Below, piece by piece: positions 2,718-10,617 of a DNA stretch of 64,000 nucleotides. Numbering within the stretch: the stretch's first letter is position 1; the number at the start of each line of letters is the position of its first letter. The notes beneath the pieces are model-generated. The model had not been told where the DNA came from. It was given only the letters and a program-made list of their open reading frames with translations, and searched no databases. Made by a program: the position numbers and the translations under genes. This stretch comes from Myxococcaceae bacterium (GTDB taxonomy: Bacteria > Myxococcota > Myxococcia > Myxococcales > Myxococcaceae): the NCBI GenBank assembly GCA_016793095.1, contig JAEUJQ010000037.1, positions 12,244 to 76,243 on the forward strand. The letters are read 5' to 3'.

Positions 2718-4061
2718 CTATCTCGCCGCGGACAGCGCGCGCACCCGCTCGGCGAGGTTGGTGCTGAACAGGCGGTAGATGCGCAGCGCCGCCGTCGGGG
2801 TGTTGGCCATGAACTGGCGGAAGGCCTCGCGCCCGATGAAGAGCGCCCGGGCGTTGGTCCGCGCCGTCACGCGCGCCGAGGTCGGCCCGTCGAGCAGCAG
2901 GGAGATCTCTCCCACCGAGCTCCCGGCGCCCAGGGTGTTGAGCAGCCGCGCGTCCTTGCCTGAGCCGTCGTACACCTCCACCTGGCCCTCGATGATGATG
3001 TAGAGGCCGCGCCCGGGTTCACCGGGCTCGATGAGGTGCGCCCCCGCCTTGAAGGTGTGGTGCACGCAGATGCGGAAGACCGCGCGCATGTCGTCGATGC
3101 TGAGGTCGGCGAAGAAGGGCAGCGCCTTGAGGAACCCGTAGGCCTCGCCGGTGAGCGCGAGCGGCTGCACCGTCTGAAGCACCGGCACGGGCTTGCGCTC
3201 CACCGGCGTCGAGACCGGCAGGCGCGCGCGCACCTTCACCGCCGCCTCGTGGTTGCCCAGGGACTCGAGGAGCGACGCCAGCAGGCTCAACAGCGAGGGG
3301 TCGTCCTTCCCGCTCCCGCTGCGGCCGCAGTTCATCAGCAACTGAACGGCCTTCTCGGCGTGCCCGTGCCCCGCGAGCAGCTCGGCGAGGCGCAGGTTTG
3401 GAGCGACCGCGCCTGGCGCCGCCGCGACCGCCCCGCGCAGGCTCTCGACCTCGCCGTGCAGGTTCCCCAGCGCCCGGTAGAGGTCAGCGGCCTGCTCGAA
3501 GCGACCCGCGCGGACGAGGCACTCTGCCAGCTGCTCGCGGGCGCCGGTCTGCGAGTACAGCGCGATGGCGTCGTCGATCCGGCCCGCGCGCTCGCAGGCG
3601 AACGCCGCCCGGGTCAGCTCGCCACAGCGCCTCCACGCCTCGGCCGCCTTCTGCAGCTCTCCCGCCTGCTCGAAGCAGGGGCCCGCCTCGGCGTCGAGCT
3701 TGAGCGCTTCATAGAGGGCGCCGGCGGCCGAGAAGTCGCGCGCTCGGCGGAACACCTGCGCGAGGTTCTTCCTCGAGTCGAAGGACGCGGTCTGCGCCTC
3801 GGCCAACAGGCTCTGCCGCACCGAGCCACCCGTCTCCTCGTAGAGCTTCACGGCCGCGTCGATGTCGCCCTTCGCCAGGACGGCGCGCAGCTGACCCAGA
3901 GACCCGCCGACCGGCACGAGCTGGCCGTCGCCGCCGTCATCGAGGAACTCGAACTCCATCGCTGAGTGGTTCATCGCCGCCACCATACAAGCGCCCTCCC
4001 GGGCCGCTGCGGGATTCGGCGCGGCGTCCGCTCCCAGTGAAACCGCACGATGGCCCGGCAC
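2718..4061 (-). CDS. cyclic-nucleotide-binding domain protein with TPR-like N-terminal region
   Basis: C-terminal cNMP-binding domain (FFADLSIDDMRAVFR..GEPGRGLYIIIEGQVEV..LGAGSSVGEISLL) and helical-repeat N-terminus. The true start may be the internal Met near 3974. Confidence 0.7.
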   Translation of the reverse strand: MPGHRAVSLGADAAPNPAAAREGACMVAAMNHSAMEFEFLDDGGDGQLVPVGGSLGQLRAVLAKGDIDAAVKLYEETGGSVRQSLLAEAQTASFDSRKNLAQVFRRARDFSAAGALYEALKLDAEAGPCFEQAGELQKAAEAWRRCGELTRAAFACERAGRIDDAIALYSQTGAREQLAECLVRAGRFEQAADLYRALGNLHGEVESLRGAVAAAPGAVAPNLRLAELLAGHGHAEKAVQLLMNCGRSGSGKDDPSLLSLLASLLESLGNHEAAVKVRARLPVSTPVERKPVPVLQTVQPLALTGEAYGFLKALPFFADLSIDDMRAVFRICVHHTFKAGAHLIEPGEPGRGLYIIIEGQVEVYDGSGKDARLLNTLGAGSSVGEISLLLDGPTSARVTARTNARALFIGREAFRQFMANTPTAALRIYRLFSTNLAERVRALSAAR

Positions 4062-4157: not shown

Positions 4158-4421
4158 CTACTGGGCGCACACCCACCCGGCGTCAGGCTGACACTGCGCG
4201 ACGCCCGCGGCGATGCAGTCGCCAGAGAGGTCGCCAGCCCCCGGGTAGACGCAGCTCAGGCCACTCGACGAGGGGCAGGCAGACGACGCCGTGCAGCGCG
4301 CGCGAGCAGCCGTCCACGTGGACGCGCACAACGGCGAGTTCACCACGGCGGGCGTCGGGCACGCCGGCTTCTGGGCACCACAGCCCGCCAGCGAGAGGAC
4401 GGACAGCAGGAGCAGCCTCAT
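4158..4421 (-). CDS. small Cys-rich lipoprotein
   Basis: MRLLLLSVLSLAGC lipobox followed by about 70 aa containing 8 Cys. The start was chosen at the internal Met of the longer ORF. Confidence 0.35.
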   Translation of the reverse strand: MRLLLLSVLSLAGCGAQKPACPTPAVVNSPLCASTWTAARARCTASSACPSSSGLSCVYPGAGDLSGDCIAAGVAQCQPDAGWVCAQ

Positions 4422-4503
4422 CACGCGGGAACAGACAGCGAAACCGCTGCGCAGGCAAGCGACGCCCTCGCGTTCGCGCGCGCGCTCATGCAACGTTCCA
4501 CGC

Positions 4504-5346
4504 GTGATCACGCCACGTCATCGCGTGCTGCCGTCGTCGGGTTGGCTGCTCGTGAGCACCGACCTGCACGGCAACCTCGAGGACTTCCGCGCCCTCGAGC
4601 GCGTCGCGGAGGACGCCTGGCGCGCCGGCGTGGAGCTCCACTGGGCGGTGCTGGGGGACCTCGTCCACGGCCCCGACGCCGAGGCCGCGGCGCGCACCCC
4701 GCAGCTCCATGGTTTCCCCGATGACAGCCCGGCCCTCATCGACGCGCTCACCGCCGTGATGGCACGGCACCCGGGACGCGTGCACTTCGTCCTCGGCAAC
4801 CACGACGCGGGGCACCTCGGGTTCAAACACACCGGTAAGTTCCACCCCGACGAAGTCGAGGCGCTCGAGGCGCGGCTGACGGTCGGCCAGCGCGACCGGC
4901 TGCAGCGGCTCTGCTCCGAAGCGCTGCTCGCGCTGGTGGCGCCGTGCGGGCTGCTGCTCACCCACGGTGCGCCTGGCGACGCGGTCGAGACGCTGGCGAT
5001 GCTCGACGGTCCGCTGCCGCCTGAGCGACCTGACGACGCCCGCTTCCGCGCCGTGAACGAGCTGTTGTGGAGCTACGGCCAGCCAGGTCCCGTCGCCGCC
5101 CGGCTGCTCGCGCGGGTCAGCGCCGAGACGGGCCATGAGCTGCGCGTGGTGGTGCACGGACACGACCGCGACGAGAGCGGGTGGTTCATCGAAGGCGAGA
5201 ACCAGGTCCAGCCGGTGCTGTTCGGGGCCCCGCGAGAGCAGAAGCGCTACCTCTGGGTGGACCTGTCCCTCCCGGTGAGCTCGTGTCAGGCCCTCGAGCG
5301 AGAGGCGCTTCGACGCCTGTACCCGTTGCGGGACGGGGGCGATTGA
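4504..5346 (+). CDS. metallophosphoesterase (calcineurin-like Ser/Thr phosphatase family)
   Basis: Motifs LVSTDLHGN, GDLVHGPD and GNHD are present. A GTG start at 4504 is inferred and the start is uncertain. Confidence 0.65.
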   Translation: MITPRHRVLPSSGWLLVSTDLHGNLEDFRALERVAEDAWRAGVELHWAVLGDLVHGPDAEAAARTPQLHGFPDDSPALIDALTAVMARHPGRVHFVLGNHDAGHLGFKHTGKFHPDEVEALEARLTVGQRDRLQRLCSEALLALVAPCGLLLTHGAPGDAVETLAMLDGPLPPERPDDARFRAVNELLWSYGQPGPVAARLLARVSAETGHELRVVVHGHDRDESGWFIEGENQVQPVLFGAPREQKRYLWVDLSLPVSSCQALEREALRRLYPLRDGGD

Positions 5347-5364
5347 CTCCACACTGTCGCTCCG

Positions 5365-6447
5365 ATGTTCCCCCGCGTCGCCGTGTGCTGCTTCGTGATG
5401 ACTGCCTGCACGGGCACGGCCATCTCCGAGCTCGGCCCGCCTCCACTCGATGACAGCGATGGGGGAACGGCCGGAGGCGAGGCGGGCGGGGACGCAGGCG
5501 GGGGGGCCGCGGGAGGAGGCTCGACGGCAGGAGGCTCGACGGCAGGGGGCTCGACGGCAGGTGGAGCGAGCGCCGGCGGCGCGGCAGGCGGCATGGTCGT
5601 CACCGGCCCCTGCTCGATGACAGGCGGCACGCGGGTCGAGCAGGTGTGTCGGCGGTGGCGCTGCGACCGCATGGACCTGAGTGAGGGCACGTGGTCGGGA
5701 ACGGTGTCTCCCTGCGCGGCCGGCGCGCTGAATGACACGGGCAGGAACAACGCGCTCAAGCTGATCAACCTGTACCGCTTCCTGGCCGACCTGCCGCCGG
5801 TGACGCTCGACGCCGCGAAGAACCAGTCGGCCCAGGAGTGCGCCCTGATGATGGACGCGAACAACCAGCTCAGCCACAGCCCGCCAGCGTCGTGGACCTG
5901 TTACTCGGCGAGCGGAGCGCAGGCCGCGGGGCGATCGAACATCTGCTCGACGCGCGCGGTCCGCTGCATCGACATGTACATGTCTGACTTCGGCAACGCG
6001 ACGACCATCGGCCACCGCCGATGGTTCCTGTCGAATCAGCTCGGCCCCATCGGCATCGGGGGCACCACCGGCGGCAGCTGCCACCACGTCATCGGCGGCT
6101 CGGGCACGTCGACGAAGCCCTGGCTCGCGTACCCACCACCCGGGCCGGTGCCGCTCGAGGCCATCGCCATCCCCGGCAACCCGTCGGTGGACTCCACGGG
6201 GTGGACGGTGCAGAGCTACGCGTCCACCTGGAGCCTCGTCGGCGCCACCGTCACGGTGACGGAGGGCGGGCAGAATCGCCCCGTGACCGTCACCCAGCTC
6301 GGCGACAACTACGGCAGCCGCTACGCCATCCGCTTCAACCCGGTGGGCTGGACGACCCAGGCTGGCCGCACCTACGACGTGACGGTCAGCGCCCCGGCCC
6401 TCTCCACGCCCATCACCTACTCCGTGCAGGTCGTCTCCTGCCCCTGA
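5365..6447 (+). CDS. CAP/SCP (PR-1-like) domain lipoprotein with Gly-rich linker
   Basis: Lipobox VMTACTG, a (GGxAGG)n linker, then a CAP-like core (LINLYRFLADLPPV..ECALMMDANNQLSH..GHRRWFL). Confidence 0.6.
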   Translation: MFPRVAVCCFVMTACTGTAISELGPPPLDDSDGGTAGGEAGGDAGGGAAGGGSTAGGSTAGGSTAGGASAGGAAGGMVVTGPCSMTGGTRVEQVCRRWRCDRMDLSEGTWSGTVSPCAAGALNDTGRNNALKLINLYRFLADLPPVTLDAAKNQSAQECALMMDANNQLSHSPPASWTCYSASGAQAAGRSNICSTRAVRCIDMYMSDFGNATTIGHRRWFLSNQLGPIGIGGTTGGSCHHVIGGSGTSTKPWLAYPPPGPVPLEAIAIPGNPSVDSTGWTVQSYASTWSLVGATVTVTEGGQNRPVTVTQLGDNYGSRYAIRFNPVGWTTQAGRTYDVTVSAPALSTPITYSVQVVSCP

Positions 6448-6487
6448 TGGTGGTAACGGAAGCGCGGGGGCGAGTGACGAGGACCTG

Positions 6488-8083
6488 ATGGAGCGGCTGC
6501 AGCACCTGCTGGACGAAGGCATCATCGACGAGGTCTTCCAACAGCTGAAGACCGGCAAAGAGGCCGAGGTCTGGCTCGTGAGCCATCGCGGCGAGCCAGT
6601 CGCGGCCAAGCTGTACAAGGAGCGCGAGTTCCGCAGCTTCAAGAACGACGCTGGCTACCTCGAGGGCCGGCAGGTGCGGAACACGCGCACGCAGCGCGCC
6701 ATGGACAAGGGCACCGCGTTCGGGCGTCGCGCCTCCGAGGAGGCGTGGAAGGCGTCCGAGGCCAACGCGCTCTACGCGCTGCACGCGGCAGGCGTCCGGG
6801 TGCCGAGGCCGGTGCTCTTCTACGAAGGCGTGCTGCTGATGGAGGTCATCGGTGACGCCGAAGGGCGTGTGGCGCCGCGGTTGGTGGAGGCCGGCATCAC
6901 GCGCGAGCAGGCACCAGGCCTCTACAGCCGGCTGCGCGGCGAGGTGGTGAAGATGCTCGCCGCCGACCTCATCCACGGCGACCTGTCGGAGTTCAACATC
7001 CTCCTCGGGGCCGATGGGCCCGTCATCATCGACTTCCCGCAGACGGTCGAGGCGGCGCGCAACTCACGCTCGGAGCACTTCTTCCGGCGCGACCTCGGGA
7101 ACCTGGTGCGCTTCTTCTCGGGCATCGACCCGGACCTCGCACGGCATCAGGGCGACGCGGACGAGATCTGGCGCGCCTACACCCGCCGCGAGCTGTCGGC
7201 CGACTTCGTGCCGACGGGCCGGAGCGCGTCGAGGCCACCCCATCCCCCGCGACCAGGCGGTCCCTTCCACGCGGGTCGCGCTGACTCGCCTCCGGGGCGC
7301 CGAGACGAGCGGCGCGGGCCGCCTCCATGGAAGCAGGGACGCGACGGCGGGAAGCCGCGTGGGCCGGGTGAGCAGCGTGGTCCGCGCGGCCCCGAGGTCT
7401 CGTTCAAGGGTCAGGGCCAGACGCCGACGGGAGGCGCGAGCGGGGTCACGACCGCTGCACCGCGCGACGCGAACGGGCCCGGCGCGAGAGGGAGTGGTGG
7501 GCATGCAGAGCACCGCGGGCCGCCATGGAAGCAAGGGCGTGACGGTGGAGCACCCGGGTCGAGTGAGCCGCGCGCGGCGAGAGGCCCCGAGCGCTCGTTC
7601 AACGGTCAGCAGAGTGCGAGCGGACAGGCTGAGCACCGCGGGCCGCCGTGGAAGCAGGGGCGTGACGGCGAAGGACGCGGGACGAGAGGCCCTGAGCGCT
7701 CGTTCAACGGCCAGCCGCAGGGCCCGAGCGGACGTGGAGAGCAACGCGGGTCGAGTGAGCCGCGCGGGACGAGAGGGCCCGAGCGCTCGTTCAACGGTCA
7801 GCCGCGGGGCGCGAGCGGACACGCTGAGCAGCGCGGGCCGAGTGAGCCACGCGAGACGAGAGGCCCCGAGCGCTCGTTCAACGGCCCGCCGCAGGGCGCG
7901 AGCGGACACGCCGAGCACCGCGGGCCGCCGTGGAAGCAGAGCCGTGACGGCGGCAAGCCACGCGGCGCGAACGAGCGCGGGCCCGGAGCTTCGTTCAACC
8001 GGCAGCCGACTGGAGAAGGAGGCTCCGACCGCCGTCCAGCCGGCGGGCGTGATTCGCGCCGACGTCGGCCGCGTCGCTGGTGA
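6488..8083 (+). CDS. RIO-type (PA4780-like) protein kinase with long Arg/Gly-rich repetitive C-terminal tail
   Basis: N-terminal RIO kinase core (EAEVWLV..AAKLYKE..LIHGDLSEFNILL..IIDFPQ). The C-terminal ~270 aa is a repeat of about 32 aa (HAEHRGPPWKQGRDG...RGPERSFNGQP). Confidence 0.7.
   Translation: MERLQHLLDEGIIDEVFQQLKTGKEAEVWLVSHRGEPVAAKLYKEREFRSFKNDAGYLEGRQVRNTRTQRAMDKGTAFGRRASEEAWKASEANALYALHAAGVRVPRPVLFYEGVLLMEVIGDAEGRVAPRLVEAGITREQAPGLYSRLRGEVVKMLAADLIHGDLSEFNILLGADGPVIIDFPQTVEAARNSRSEHFFRRDLGNLVRFFSGIDPDLARHQGDADEIWRAYTRRELSADFVPTGRSASRPPHPPRPGGPFHAGRADSPPGRRDERRGPPPWKQGRDGGKPRGPGEQRGPRGPEVSFKGQGQTPTGGASGVTTAAPRDANGPGARGSGGHAEHRGPPWKQGRDGGAPGSSEPRAARGPERSFNGQQSASGQAEHRGPPWKQGRDGEGRGTRGPERSFNGQPQGPSGRGEQRGSSEPRGTRGPERSFNGQPRGASGHAEQRGPSEPRETRGPERSFNGPPQGASGHAEHRGPPWKQSRDGGKPRGANERGPGASFNRQPTGEGGSDRRPAGGRDSRRRRPRRW
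7290..7990 (+). repeat. in-frame tandem repeat (about 96-99 bp x ~6) encoding the kinase tail
   Basis: Repeated DNA blocks of the form cgcgggccgccatggaagcagggacgcgacgg...cgagcgctcgttcaacggtcag are visible. Confidence 0.7.
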
Positions 8084-8125
8084 CCCAACCCGGTTGACGC
8101 CCTGGATGACGTCCCGTACGGGGAC

Positions 8126-9526
8126 TTGATGCGCTGGCTCGTCAGTCTCACCCTGCTCTCGTCCGCCTGCGGCGTGACGCCGACCGGCGAAGTCCCCACG
8201 ACGTCTTCCTCACAGGGACTCGAGGCGGTGACGGGCTTCGGTTCGAACCCGGGCAACCTGCTGATGTATCGCTTCGTGCCTGTGGGCCTGCCACGGGGTC
8301 GCCCGCTCGTGGTGCTCCTGCACGGGTGCGGAGAGACCGCCACCAGCTTCTCGACGTCGAGCGGCTTCGAGGCGTTGGCGACGCAGCGACAGGTCGCGCT
8401 GCTGCTGCCGCAGCAGCAGTTCATCAACAACGTGCAGACCTGCTTCAACTGGTTCGATGCAGCGAACCAGACCCGGAACGCCGGCGAGATGCTGTCCATC
8501 TCGCAGATGGTGGACCGCATGGTGACTGATCAGGGCTCTGACCCACAGCGCGTCTACGTAGCCGGCTTCTCGGCTGGAGCCGCGGCCGCGGCGAACGTGC
8601 TCGCGACGATGCCGGACCGCTTCCGCGCTGGCGCCATCGCCGCTGGCATCGCGTTCAAGTGCACCGAGTCTCTGGCCGGTTCGACTGCCTGCCTCAACGG
8701 CGCCATGCCGACCAACCCCGATGGCGGCGCGCGAACCCCCGCCGAGCGCGCGGCTCTCGTGCGCGCGGCCTTCCCCTCTTACCCGGGCCCGCCGCCCCGG
8801 GTGTCCCTCTGGCACGGCCTGTCGGACGTCTTCGTCGCTCCCGTCAACTCGCAGCAGTCGATGCAGCAGTGGACGGCGGTGCACGGCATCGACCAGACCG
8901 CCGACGGGACGAGCGTCATCTCGAGTGGCGGGACTCGAAGCGTCTTTCGCGCGGCGGCTGGAAGCGACGCGCTCGTCGAGCTGAACGAGGTGCCCGCGCT
9001 TGGTCACTCCTGGCGCACCGCCTGGGCAGCAGACATCGCCGACTTCTTCGGCCTGCGGGTCGAGTCGGATGGCGGCGCAGGAGGCGGAGGGGCAGGAGGC
9101 GCAGCCGGTGGGACTGGCGGTGCGGCCGGTGGCGGTGCGGCGGGTGGCGGTGCGGCGGGTGGCGGTGCGGCCGGTGGCGGTGCTTCCGGTGGTGGTGCTT
9201 CCGGTGGTGCGGCCGGTGGCAGTGCGGCCGGTGGTGGTGCGGCTGGCGGTGGTGCGGCCGGCGGTGGTGCGGCTGGTGGCGGCGCGTCCGGTGGCGGCGC
9301 GTCCGGTGGCGGCGTGTCTGGTGGCGGCGTGTCCGGTGGCGGCGTGTCCGGTGGCGGCGTGGCTGGTGGCTCGTCCGGCGGCGGCTCGTCGACTCAGCCG
9401 ATGGGGTGTTCGAGCTGCAGCAGCGTGAACGCGCCTGGCCTCTTCGCGCTGGTCCTCCTCCTGAGGCGCAGGCGTTCCTCAGGGCAGGTCAGAGGGGCCA
9501 CGGGCCCGCTTCGATGCGCGCGATGA
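8126..9526 (+). CDS. PHB-depolymerase-family esterase lipoprotein with Gly-rich repeat and MYXO-CTERM-like tail
   Basis: Lipobox LLSSACG, an esterase core (VVLLHGCGE..GFSAGAA), a (AGGG/SGGG)n repeat, then GCSSCSS plus a hydrophobic stretch and RRRR. Confidence 0.7.
   Translation: MMRWLVSLTLLSSACGVTPTGEVPTTSSSQGLEAVTGFGSNPGNLLMYRFVPVGLPRGRPLVVLLHGCGETATSFSTSSGFEALATQRQVALLLPQQQFINNVQTCFNWFDAANQTRNAGEMLSISQMVDRMVTDQGSDPQRVYVAGFSAGAAAAANVLATMPDRFRAGAIAAGIAFKCTESLAGSTACLNGAMPTNPDGGARTPAERAALVRAAFPSYPGPPPRVSLWHGLSDVFVAPVNSQQSMQQWTAVHGIDQTADGTSVISSGGTRSVFRAAAGSDALVELNEVPALGHSWRTAWAADIADFFGLRVESDGGAGGGGAGGAAGGTGGAAGGGAAGGGAAGGGAAGGGASGGGASGGAAGGSAAGGGAAGGGAAGGGAAGGGASGGGASGGGVSGGGVSGGGVSGGGVAGGSSGGGSSTQPMGCSSCSSVNAPGLFALVLLLRRRRSSGQVRGATGPLRCAR
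9060..9400 (+). repeat. (GGN)n / 15-bp tandem repeat encoding Gly-rich linker
   Basis: Repeated ggtggcggtgcggc(c/g)ggt units. Confidence 0.7.
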
Positions 9527-9803
9527 GCTCGTCCAGGCTCGCGGCCTCGTAGACGATGGCGCCGGTCGGCTCGCTCAACTGCTCGGCGTGCTCGGGCATG
9601 AACAGGCCGTGCTCCTTCAGGTAGGCGTCGGCCTTCGCCCGCTCGAGCACGAGGCGCCGCACTCGCAGCTTCCCTTCCTCCAGCACCACGCCGTGCGTCC
9701 AATGATGGGCGCCGAGCCCCACCCGCGCCCCACCGTCCGCACGCCAGGAACGCCGCAGCCGCTGCACGAACTCCGCCTTCGTCTCGAGCGCACGAGGAGC
9801 CAT
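9489..9803 (-). CDS. hypothetical small protein
   Basis: About 105-aa frame from the internal Met MAPRALE. It is divergent from the ceramidase gene. No domain recognised. Confidence 0.3.
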   Translation of the reverse strand: MAPRALETKAEFVQRLRRSWRADGGARVGLGAHHWTHGVVLEEGKLRVRRLVLERAKADAYLKEHGLFMPEHAEQLSEPTGAIVYEAASLDELIARIEAGPWPL

Positions 9804-9882
9804 GGGCACGACGCTCTCGTATTCGCGAACCCGATGCACCGTTCGTTTTCCGGCGGTCACGTTGACGACGCAAACCAGACAG

Positions 9883-10597
9883 ATGACACCGCTCACCATG
9901 GACCTGACCGGCTACCCCGAGCTCACCAACCCCGCCTGTCCGTGGACGCCGCTCCGCGAGTGGGGCGGCCTGCCGAACGTGAAGTGGTGCGAGGAGACGC
10001 TCTGCTCGTGGGTGGCCGAGCCGGCCAACACGTGGTCCAACGTCGCGTTCCTGGTGACGGCGCTGGTCCTCTTCCTGGTGACCCGCAAGGAGACGAGCCG
10101 CACCGAGCGCTTCTGGCCCACCGCCACGTTCTGGGTCGGGGTCTCGTCCCTCGTGTACCACGCGTCGGTCACCTTCGTGCTGCAGGTGTTCGACTTCTTC
10201 GGCATGTATTTCTTCTTCGGGCTGGTGCTGCTCCTCAACCTGGTCCGCCTCGAGGTGCTCGCGAAGGAGCGCCTCTTCAAGGTGCTGTGGATCAGCATCA
10301 TCGGGCTGACCGTCTTCACGGTGGTGGTGGCGAAGGTGGGCCTGCCGGTGCAGGGCATCATCTTCGTCATGCTGCTGGGCGGCGTCGCGACCGAGGTGCT
10401 CGCGACGGTGAAGCGCAAGACGCAGGTGCGCTGGTTCCTGCTGGCCCTCGTCACCATCGTCGTCGCGGCCGGCTTCTCGGGCTCTGACGTCTCGCGGCGC
10501 TGGTGTGACCCGCACGACCACGTCTTTCAGGGCCACGCCATCTGGCACGTGCTCAACGCGGTCGGCATCGGGCTCGCCTTCGTGCACTACCGCCAGT

Positions 10598-10617
<20 letters not shown>
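9883..10617 (+). CDS. ceramidase-family (alkaline ceramidase/CREST-like) integral membrane hydrolase
   Basis: Seven hydrophobic segments and the HAIWH motif near the C-terminus are typical of ceramidase/haemolysin-III-type hydrolases. The exact start is uncertain. Confidence 0.6.

Follow-up and report, generated by a model that had tools for sequence, protein, structure and literature searches.

What is the role of the long arginine- and glycine-rich tail, built of tandem repeats, that extends a bacterial RIO kinase? [quoted passage not shown] The gene that raises this question lies in a 64-kb stretch of DNA, here called the window. The original prediction placed a RIO-type kinase and an Arg/Gly-rich repeat tail on one open reading frame, and this was borne out by a single plus-strand ORF of 531 codons ending in TGA. 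Its product is identical to the NCBI protein JNJ54_14380, a 'hypothetical protein' from a metagenome-assembled genome (MAG) of a Myxococcaceae bacterium with a GC content of 71%, and the exact 531 aa protein occurs on one contig only. The JNJ54_14380 annotation is one codon longer, with a CTG start at 6485. A check of positions 6000–8600 for non-coding RNA, promoter and terminator features found none.

The ORF is a genuine, intact bacterial gene for a RIO-type kinase or ATPase. It is also an ordinary member of an uncharacterized family, and the architectural observation is modestly new. Our literature search returned no account of a tail on bacterial RIO kinases and no mention of 'PA4780'. The anatomy and the evolutionary description given below are very probably right. 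Our overall explanation, in which an intact RIO kinase/ATPase would use its tail as a tether, we rate at a probability of about one half.

The kinase domain

The gene and its catalytic features are as follows.

6488–8083, plus strand: complete ORF, 531 aa followed by TGA (JNJ54_14380)
6488–7228, plus strand: RIO-type kinase/ATPase domain, aa 1–247 (Pfam, NCBIfam and PDB matches; GC3)
6548–6571, plus strand: P-loop KTGKEAEV, aa 21–28, aligned to STGKEANV of Rio1
6608–6610, plus strand: ATP-binding lysine K41, within VAAKLYK (alignment to homologues)
6968–7003, plus strand: catalytic loop LIHGDLSEFNIL, aa 161–172, with H163, catalytic D165 and N170 (alignment)
7022–7045, plus strand: metal-binding loop VIIDFPQT, aa 179–186, with D182 (alignment)

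A search with the Pfam RIO1 model (PF01163) matched aa 32–212 at 123.1 bits (cut-off 22, E = 1.3e-35). The nearest NCBIfam model is that of the PA4780 family, NF041645 (293.7 bits, aa 2–247, profile positions 5–249 of 274), in agreement with the earlier description of the domain as a RIO/PA4780-like kinase. Rio1 structures in the PDB also match the kinase domain (E about 1e-17 to 1e-18), and GC3 in this region is 0.93. The strings first used to recognize the kinase, those of the catalytic and metal-binding loops, are both present where listed.

Alignment likewise located the catalytic Lys and Asp whose presence had been in question, and both are invariant across homologues. The P-loop segment TGKEAEV (aa 22–28) and K41 align to afRio1 and fungal Rio1, and neither K41 nor the P-loop residues G23, K24, E25 and A26 vary in alignments of 54 and of 100 homologues. 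The same invariance across 54 and 100 homologues holds for H163, D165, N170 and D182, the last of which corresponds to the aspartate that binds Mg and becomes phosphorylated in RIO enzymes (PMC4117770). With every catalytic residue present, the RIO domain is, as judged from its sequence, catalytically intact.

The fold was examined on a homologue, P0031, that is 66% identical overall to the 531 aa protein (alignment A1). Its AF2 model has a kinase pLDDT above 90 and places a helix (residues 2–9) ahead of strands at 15–43. Foldseek matched this model to RIOK1 and afRio1 (E = 1.9e-16, TM up to 0.71), and its top matches were all RIOK1, Rio1 or RIOK3. Read from this homologue, the protein is predicted to adopt a RIO1-like fold, with the N-terminal RIO-specific helix ahead of a beta-sheet N-lobe and a shortened C-lobe that has no activation loop.

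Family placement

The closest curated family is PA4780 (NF041645), the 'RioB' group of LaRonde-LeBlanc and Wlodawer. The protein belongs to the RioB lineage and resembles its members in being bacterial, in carrying a stand-alone RIO domain that begins at about residue 2, and in having an uncharacterized function. It falls short of the 350 bits required of a PA4780 equivalog, and some 25 positions at the end of the profile (250–274) find no match; it represents a subfamily related to the PA4780 family, not an equivalog. Whereas short-tailed PA4780-like relatives (278–298 aa) end in ...EIxxAxxEE...RR, this protein carries a long cationic repeat tail. As the tails of true PA4780-like members are short and not cationic, a long cationic tail would be dispensable for the family's core activity.

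The Rio1/RIOK1 proteins (A. fulgidus 1ZP9/1ZTH; human 4OTP, 6ZXG) have the same P-loop and Lys, share the HxDLSExN catalytic loop and the IDxxQ metal loop, and are the best fold matches of the P0031 model, but identity to them is only about 25–28%, and the NCBIfam Rio1 equivalog model NF041310 gives 94.4 bits, below its threshold of 480. Unlike Rio1/RIOK1, the protein is bacterial and has no partners from the eukaryotic pathway such as 40S or Nob1. Its extension is also unrelated to theirs, being repetitive, polycationic, predicted to be disordered and hypervariable in length, whereas the C-terminal domain of Rio1/RIOK1 is conserved and either helical or acidic-basic. Rio2 proteins are marked by an N-terminal winged-helix domain ahead of the RIO domain. 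We rejected a Rio2 identity, as no such domain precedes the RIO domain here; matches to Rio2 are also weaker (E about 1e-10) than those to Rio1. A weak TCAD9 match raised the possibility of a defence system, which was rejected as well, since PADLOC gave no match and no defence genes lie nearby.

An RG-rich tail in frame with the kinase

The remainder of the protein is divided as follows.

7229–8080, plus strand: polycationic tail, predicted to be disordered, aa 248–531 (284 aa) (composition, homologue model)
7298–7423, plus strand: unit 1, aa 271–312, RRGPPPWKQGRDGG then the canonical family motif; ancestral-type unit
7385–7411, plus strand: canonical copy of the family motif, RGPEVSFKG, aa 300–308 (homologue comparison)
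7424–7495, plus strand: non-repeat spacer after unit 1, aa 313–336 (24 aa)
7496–7723, plus strand: units 2 and 3, aa 337–377 (41 aa) and 378–412 (35 aa)
7724–7897, plus strand: units 4 and 5, aa 413–441 and 442–470, 29 aa (87 nt) each
7898–8014, plus strand: unit 6, aa 471–509 (39 aa)
8015–8080, plus strand: C-terminal segment, aa 510–531, ending in the family-conserved terminus RRRRPRRW (8057–8080)

The tail is rich in Gly, Arg and Pro (62, 47 and 43 residues; 22%, 17% and 15%), has 10% acidic residues, and carries a net charge of +26 with a pI of 11.8. The disorder originally proposed for it agrees with a charge-hydropathy plot, in which it lies in the disordered zone (mean hydropathy 0.303; boundary 0.446), and with the AF2 model of the well-modelled homologue P0031, whose tail has no secondary structure and a pLDDT of about 48–59. 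The model of the 531 aa protein itself, built with 54 close homologues, is poor (mean pLDDT 51.8); most of its tail is below 50 and lacks secondary structure, which lends weak support to disorder. From the charge-hydropathy plot and the low pLDDT, the tail is predicted to be intrinsically disordered.

The description of the tail as RGG-box-like did not hold. By the definitions of RGG and RG boxes that Thandapani et al. reportedly gave in 2013, it resembles such regions in being Arg/Gly-rich, disordered by prediction and enriched in RG dipeptides (20 against 10.2 expected, with 3 tri-RG and 7 di-RG arrangements). Unlike RGG-box proteins, it has no RGG triplet and hence no di- or tri-RGG arrangement, most of its Arg residues belong to RGP, ERS or RRD strings, and its acidic content is as given above. 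The tail is RG-rich, not an RGG box.

GC content by codon position in the tail is flat (0.78/0.73/0.75) and hence uninformative on frame. That the tail shares the reading frame of the kinase, the point on which the original prediction had been open to refutation, is shown by the family-conserved motif and the terminus RRRRPRRW, which are both read in that frame. The source is a MAG, the exact protein is known from one contig, and tandem repeats are apt to be mis-assembled, so the array or its copy number could be an assembly artefact that hides a shorter or frameshifted gene. This is barely credible: the repeat copies are 7–37% diverged and so resolvable by short reads, the frame stays open up to the family-conserved terminus, and comparable tails are present in hundreds of independent assemblies, those of isolates included.

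Repeat units of the tail

The tail repeats exceed chance by far, as seen from a TRF score of 394 (2.9 copies of an 87-nt period, 87% match) and from direct-repeat families of 5–6 copies. The expected number of about six copies proved correct, with six RGPE[V/R]SF[K/N]G modules (aa 305, 370, 405, 434, 463 and 502), and four RGPPWKQGRDG-type modules (RGPPWKQ.RDG) are found at aa 280, 346, 387 and 481. The unit itself is neither uniform nor near-identical at the DNA level, as had been supposed. In place of a ~32-aa unit of 96–99 bp, the lengths are 42, 41, 35, 29, 29 and 39 aa in order (87–126 nt; the four central units 123, 105, 87 and 87 nt and the last 117 nt), a 24-aa spacer intervenes, and the copies are 63–93% identical.

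Unit 1 aligns with a single-copy equivalent in the nearest relative, P0002. Units 2 and 3 each consist of HAEHRGPPWKQGRDG plus RGPERSFNGQ, units 4 and 5 carry RGPERSFNG without the PPWKQ half and form the core of the TRF array, and unit 6 combines HAEHRGPPWKQSRDG with a degenerate motif copy, RGPGASFNR. The amplified copies carry V-to-R and K-to-N changes relative to the family consensus and so might not be interchangeable with the canonical one. Synonymous to non-synonymous differences between whole units (15:33, 27:39 and 44:128) are near neutral. The motif cores of the copies differ only at synonymous third positions, but these cores were picked for being conserved and, with whole units near neutral, no purifying selection is claimed.

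Tails across the family

We surveyed 119 close homologues and 124 representatives clustered at 50% identity, among which tails range from 11 to 539 aa and are almost always strongly cationic. All 119 close homologues have tails of 60–302 aa with a net charge above +5. Of the representatives, 93% have cationic tails (median length 216 aa, maximum 539 aa). A separate pattern scan of genome contigs, built on one sequence alone, returned just 7 loci. Comparable tails are not confined to draft metagenomes, and the repeat units differ from lineage to lineage, to the point that tail sequence is unalignable between lineages. The tail is real, as predicted, but the idea that it was fused to the kinase in a special event is not upheld: in myxobacteria this family normally carries a long, cationic tail of low complexity that evolves quickly, and the present tail is no one-off fusion.

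Comparison of copy number across relatives, which had been proposed as a check, reveals clean insertions and deletions of repeat units between the tails of proteins whose kinase domains are identical or 99% identical. In P0013 and P0015 the difference is a 36-aa insertion of four 9-aa units, and in two Corallococcus isolates it is a 33-aa insertion inside an array of ~11-aa repeats. P0002, with 93% kinase identity, has both tail ends in common with the present protein and has expanded a different 9-aa unit. The claim of hypervariable copy number thus stands at the level of the family, but not the claim of slippage in this gene; because its units are long (87–126 nt) and already 7–37% diverged, the data favour older unequal recombination over ongoing slippage.

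Such turnover might mean that the tail is essentially neutral low-complexity DNA, a tolerated repeat expansion in which at most a short terminal signal is functional. The unalignable sequence, the 11–539 aa length range, the unit indels between identical kinases and the near-neutral ratios of whole units would all fit, as would a tail GC3 below the kinase GC3 in 9 of 9 loci and the Gly/Ala-rich repeats of adjoining genes. Nevertheless, positive charge is kept in 100% of close and 93% of distant homologues despite complete sequence turnover, and no close homologue is tail-less (minimum 60 aa). Moreover, conservation of a motif and a terminus at the far end means that the frame has been kept open through every repeat array. 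We consider full neutrality improbable.

Two conserved elements

Within the variable tail two elements are conserved, R-[RK]-G-P-E-V-[SV]-[FY]-[RK]-G and a C-terminal RRRPxRR[F/W]. The motif was counted 94 times, compared with 1.8 expected from shuffled tails. Among close homologues, at least four of the final 10 residues are basic in 91%, and the ending RR..[FWY] is found in 61%. The amplified unit of the present gene contains the motif, and its six copies are the most among the 277 family proteins examined. A search of 5.8 billion proteins with a profile of the C-terminal module (A3) gave no match at E ≤ 0.01, RIO proteins included, this 40-residue, low-complexity profile being without power, such that it missed the RIO proteins themselves.

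The central residue of the motif is Ser in 52 of 70 instances, and an upstream Arg is present in all copies. Autophosphorylation on Ser/Thr is a property of RIO kinases (PMC1262709; PMC4117770), so the copies could be substrates or pseudo-substrates of their own kinase, with phosphorylation of RGPE-x-S-F tuning charge and releasing a partner, and six copies acting as a graded switch. This is distinctly improbable. Val takes this position in 15 of 70, and Leu or Thr is also found there, which rules out phosphorylation as the conserved role, and AF2 leaves the motif outside the active site. In addition, Rio proteins are chiefly ATPases, and autophosphorylation by Rio1 accounts for less than 0.1% of hydrolysis events (PMC4117770). 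The AF2 model of the homologue suggests no folded or docked state for the RGPE motif.

A possible tether

The ancestral layout was very probably a kinase, a linker, one motif, about 20–35 variable residues and a basic-aromatic RRRPxRR[F/W] C-terminus. In different lineages the linker has grown through unit-wise insertion and deletion of tandem repeats that are unrelated to one another, and in this gene the amplified 29–42-aa unit includes the motif, giving six copies. We propose that the RIO domain would act as a conformational switch driven by ATP hydrolysis, like archaeal and eukaryotic Rio proteins. The cationic tail, the motif and the terminus would bind the protein to a polyanion, for which rRNA or a ribosomal particle is the likeliest candidate, and the six-motif array would add multivalency. 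The tether is proposed by analogy with yeast Rio1, for which a catalytic switch domain and a C-terminal extension that gives ribosome binding are established (PMC4117770).

Most family members near this gene combine an intact ATPase core with a strongly cationic, fast-changing disordered tail and the two conserved elements in it, which suggests tethering to RNA or the ribosome through the tail. By analogy with Rio1, a tether to RNA or another polyanion is plausible, if tentative; the ribosome as the specific partner is doubtful. It is unlikely that the motif and RRRPxRR[F/W] form an undescribed bipartite module by which bacterial RioB kinases would dock on rRNA or the ribosome, with the variable polycationic spacer as a tunable tether or condensate driver and the sixfold array as a multivalent scaffold. 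Such a module, if true, would open the function of bacterial RIO kinases to experiment for the first time, and the conserved motif and terminus already pinpoint residues open to mutation.

The tail might instead target another polyanion, such as nucleoid DNA, polyphosphate or condensate mRNA, and the kinase have a role unrelated to ribosome maturation. Charge and disorder alone fail to tell polyanions apart, and in bacterial helicases, disordered regions with a comparable composition bring about phase separation that depends on RNA (PMC13462270). Nor is there synteny with translation genes: the seven divergent contexts are all different and include no conserved translation-linked neighbourhood, with a co-oriented prfC neighbour in one of the seven. 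Against this, all characterized RIO-domain proteins work on small-subunit precursors, and inspection of the tail revealed no AT-hook or HMGA-like DNA-binding motif. We judge this alternative rather unlikely and retain the tether to RNA as the preferred reading.

The combination of a catalytic core with a long disordered, biased, repeat-rich region has parallels in the non-catalytic region of RNase E and in the cationic extensions of bacterial DEAD-box helicases such as type II RhlB. The RNase E region combines rapid turnover and conserved disorder with tandem repeats and embedded short conserved microdomains, of which the repeats are proposed to be progenitors (PMC4435900), and the RhlB extension drives RNA-dependent phase separation and raises helicase activity (PMC13462270). 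These are different enzyme classes with no homology to the RIO protein, and RNA binding is demonstrated for them whereas here it is inferred. The present gene is a clear bacterial case of a disordered region remodelled by the turnover of its tandem repeats, in which short linear motifs have survived and, here, have multiplied.

Synteny of the Metallophos-CAP-RIO type is confined to the nearest relatives. Neighbouring genes in the window also carry Gly/Ala-rich repeats.

Reading frame of the RIO gene

A single ORF on the + strand, from ATG 6488 to TGA 8083, encodes a 531-aa protein in which a RIO-type kinase (aa 1-247) is followed by a tail (aa 248-531); the window has a GC content of 71%. The identical protein is already public as JNJ54_14380, a 'hypothetical protein' of a Myxococcaceae MAG, whose annotation starts one codon earlier at CTG 6485 and yields 532 aa beginning MMERLQ. 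The sequence GAGGA (6479-6483) precedes ATG 6488 and, as homologs begin with MERLQ or MDLQQ, the ATG is the more plausible of the two and likely the true start.

Composition cannot settle the frame of the tail, since its GC is flat across codon positions (0.78/0.73/0.75; GC3 is 0.93 in the kinase part) and further frames are open there besides that of the kinase. We therefore relied on comparative conservation. Two stretches, RGPEVSFKG (nt 7385-7411) and the C-terminal octapeptide RRRRPRRW (nt 8057-8080), lie in the kinase frame and are kept in homologs with unrelated tail sequence in between, which we regard as decisive for a predicted tail frame identical to that of the kinase. An out-of-frame tail, named in the original prediction as an outcome that would count against it, was thus not found. 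From one repeat copy to the next, the cores of the motif vary at synonymous third positions only. These cores were picked for being conserved and the synonymous to non-synonymous ratio of whole units is near neutral, so the pattern is best described as consistent with coding constraint. GC3 is lower in tail-coding than in kinase-coding DNA of the same gene at 9/9 loci (0.60-0.78 versus 0.78-0.97; window 7229-8080 and the tail parts of homologous loci L002, L003, L004, L006, L007, L008, L009 and L011); selection on codons may be relaxed, mutation may be biased in repeats, or stable mRNA structure may be avoided.

An intact RIO catalytic core

The kinase assignment held. Pfam RIO1 matches the protein with E=1.3e-35, the kinase strings originally quoted are present, and so is every defining feature of the RIO superfamily tested. 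A sequence search of solved structures gave eukaryotic/archaeal Rio1 as best match (E about 1e-17 to 1e-18), and the GKEA P-loop, K41, H163-x-D165-LSE-x-N170 and D182 all align to Rio1 structures. The P-loop, K41, H163/D165/N170 and D182 are invariant in sets of 54 and 100 homologs; loss of the catalytic Lys or Asp, looked for because it too had been named as counting against the prediction, is not seen at K41 or D165. The catalytic core is therefore intact.

An AF2 model of a short-tailed homolog (residues 1-245 at pLDDT >90, pTM 0.75) was used for Foldseek, with human RIOK1 on pre-40S particles and A. fulgidus Rio1 as best matches (E=1.9e-16, TM up to 0.71). All RIO-family structures among the matches are eukaryotic or archaeal, which suggests that no bacterial RIO structure has been solved. 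The best NCBIfam model, the PA4780-family RIO1-like kinase, scores 293.7 bits against an equivalog cut-off of 350 bits, with its last ~25 profile positions unmatched. Equivalence to PA4780, Rio1 or Rio2 is ruled out by cut-offs or architecture.

A disordered, polycationic repeat tail

The C-terminal 284 residues are disordered and polycationic (Gly 22%, Arg 17%, Pro 15%; net charge +26, pI 11.8), and are built on two modules:

Module A, (H)AEHRGPPWKQGRDG, four copies in the tail
Module B, RGPE[V/R]SF[K/N]G, six copies in the tail

Of the module B copies, the first is canonical, the four central ones are RGPERSFNG, and the last has degenerated to RGPGASFNR. The repeats originally described are thus real but less regular than claimed, with units of 42, 41, 35, 29, 29 and 39 aa rather than ~32 aa, a 24-aa spacer behind the first, and no PPWKQ half in the two 29-aa units. 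Nor are the DNA repeats near-identical units of 96-99 bp: copies are 63-93% identical with start-to-start spacings of 195, 105, 87, 87 and 117 nt, and TRF reports a sole period of 87 nt (2.9 copies, 87% match). The tail contains 0 RGG triplets, so the RGG-box description was rejected. The anatomy of the protein as set out here is very probably correct.

The tail as a family trait

Rather than a fusion peculiar to one gene, the tail is a family trait. Among 119 close homologs (all Myxococcota where named), tails span 60-302 aa with a hydrophobic content of ~4%, half are visibly repetitive, and the net charge exceeds +5 in 119/119. When the kinase domain by itself was searched exhaustively against 1.84 billion cluster representatives, 269 proteins matched at E<1e-30; of the 150 best-scoring, 124 have a complete kinase C-end, and in these the tail has a median length of 216 aa (range 11-539) and is cationic in 93%. 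Corallococcus isolate genomes carry versions of 788 and 813 aa, known in RefSeq only as 'RIO1 family regulatory kinase/ATPase'. Short-tailed relatives (278-298 aa), presumably the true PA4780 type, have instead a short end segment whose sequence looks helical.

The repeat unit differs in nearly every lineage (for example QQQGQGRP, NEGQNRRDGRPPQQTGAP, RDERGGHP and RPPRGPNEQ), and charge is retained despite this total turnover of sequence. Two short elements in the distal part of the tail also stay in frame. The first, R-[RK]-G-P-E-V-[SV]-[FY]-[RK]-G, usually lies 27-45 residues before the C-terminus; among 70 instances, G occurs 68 times, E 63, V 67, S 52 (V 15 at that position), F 54 (Y 10) and then G 65. 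In relaxed form it occurs 94 times in tails, with 1.8 expected after shuffling. The second is the terminus: 91% of close homologs have at least four basic residues in the last ten, and 61% end in RR..[F/W/Y], typically RRRPPRRF or RRRPPRRW. In six-frame translations of about 230 kb of the sequence analysed, both elements are confined to RIO genes apart from a single spurious out-of-frame match that L009 and L010 share. On one less likely rival explanation, a tail of largely neutral repeats, these data bear from both sides, the near-neutral whole units and changing repeat sequence agreeing with it and the retained charge, motif and terminus speaking for constraint.

Only 10/277 proteins have more than one motif copy, and of these the window protein, with six, is the most motif-rich; the gene itself is an ordinary family member. 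In P0134 and P0271, from Corallococcus isolates, tails of >500 aa consist of ~11-aa QQNGEPRMNGR-type repeats with a short acidic segment, APVELEEGVSAEEAELRALEALVL, helical-looking from sequence, near the start; a PQVSY motif is kept and the basic terminus is missing, which shows that some lineages can lose this element.

Catalogues of RIO homologs in bacteria date back to 2002-2005 (PMC1262709), and the 'RioB' group was explicitly called functionally uncharacterised (PMC5815136). PA4780, the tail, its motif and its terminus were not found in the literature searched, the coverage of which was incomplete; within that scope, this is a known enzyme family with a family-wide yet undescribed tail architecture. 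The family-level pattern offers a modest, testable lead on bacterial RIO kinase function.

Change in tail length

Tail length changes by whole units. Proteins with 100% identical kinase domains have tails of 155 versus 191 aa and 202 versus 229 aa, and in many pairs with 98-99.6% identical kinases the tails are tens of residues apart; the differences in compared pairs are clean repeat-unit indels. One substitution and a 36-aa insertion (four 9-aa units) separate homologs P0013 and P0015; between two Corallococcus isolates there are seven substitutions, a 33-aa insertion in an ~11-aa repeat array (roughly three units) and, in addition, an 8-aa indel. Repeat counts in MAG assemblies can be wrong, and an assembly artefact is a rival, though very unlikely, explanation of the array; comparable tails in isolate genomes, and the divergence among the copies themselves, speak against it.

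The nearest relative, P0002 (93% kinase identity), shares the first ~50 tail residues with the window protein, among them a single PPAWKQ and a single RGPEVSFKG, as well as the terminus; its expansion uses the 9-aa RPPRGPNEQ unit instead. The hypervariability originally proposed therefore stands for the family, and for the window gene it is extrapolated. There, the long units have already diverged from one another, a state that points to unequal recombination in the past rather than slippage still under way. Overall, the original observation was confirmed in part and its interpretation partly supported.

Possible function of the tail

By analogy with Rio1, RNase E and RhlB, we favour a tail that serves as an RNA or ribosome tether; this is tentative for a polyanion or RNA in general (probability about 0.45) and more so for the ribosome specifically, and a polyanion other than the ribosome is a rival target. 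The RIO domain would act as a switch driven by ATP hydrolysis, as in Rio1/Rio2, the tail would supply affinity for a polyanionic partner, and the six-motif array would add multivalency. Rio1 and Rio2 are ATP-hydrolysis-driven switches with a phospho-aspartate intermediate, autophosphorylation accounting for <0.1% of turnover (PMC4117770). Yeast Rio1 is the best precedent for tail-borne partner affinity; in earlier work as cited there, C-terminal mutations impaired growth and left in vitro enzymatic activity unaffected (PMC4117770). The non-catalytic region of RNase E has a matching pattern of conserved disorder, composition bias, tandem repeats and embedded microdomains, which may arise from repeats (PMC4435900), and type II RhlB helicase owes its RNA-dependent condensation to a disordered extension (PMC13462270).

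Alternatively, and less probably, the tail could be an autophosphorylation or pseudo-substrate array; the motif carries Ser in most instances. In a good AF2 homolog model, motif and terminus are unstructured and undocked, which fits elements that would act in trans rather than fold back on the kinase.

Genomic neighbourhood

Genes near the RIO gene are:

1729-2706, - strand, adenylate/guanylate cyclase with FHA domain, upstream
2718-4061, - strand, TPR protein with cyclic-nucleotide-binding domain, upstream, adjoining the cyclase gene
4291-5346, + strand, calcineurin-like phosphoesterase (metallophosphoesterase), two genes upstream
5365-6447, + strand, CAP/SCP-domain protein, upstream flank
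8126-9526, + strand, PHB-depolymerase-type esterase, downstream flank
9802-10617, ceramidase-like membrane protein, downstream flank

Flanking gene order is retained in the nearest relatives only; seven more divergent homologs lie in seven different neighbourhoods, and PADLOC, Rfam, promoter and terminator searches around the RIO gene gave no matches. The gene behaves as a stand-alone unit. The sole translation-linked neighbour in the seven contexts is an RF3-type GTPase (4350-5975) in L008, a locus of a Myxococcota MAG, 26 bp upstream of the co-oriented RIO gene P0067 (6001-7215), which has three PEVSFSG copies; it does not recur.

The metallophosphoesterase keeps its position upstream of RIO in L002, L003, L004 and L005 (65-70% identity) and not in distant relatives. 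A kinase-phosphatase pairing is possible; the proximity looks more like shared ancestry. The CAP/SCP-domain protein also has an N-terminal low-complexity repeat, GGSTAGGSTAGGSTAGG, so such repeats are common in this genome and not kinase-specific. In the esterase, the N-terminus (MRWLVSLTLLSSAC) is lipoprotein-like and there is a long run of Gly/Ala repeats (GGAAGGG...). At its C-terminus, Cys residues and a hydrophobic stretch precede RRRR, an arrangement similar to a C-terminal sorting signal of myxobacteria.
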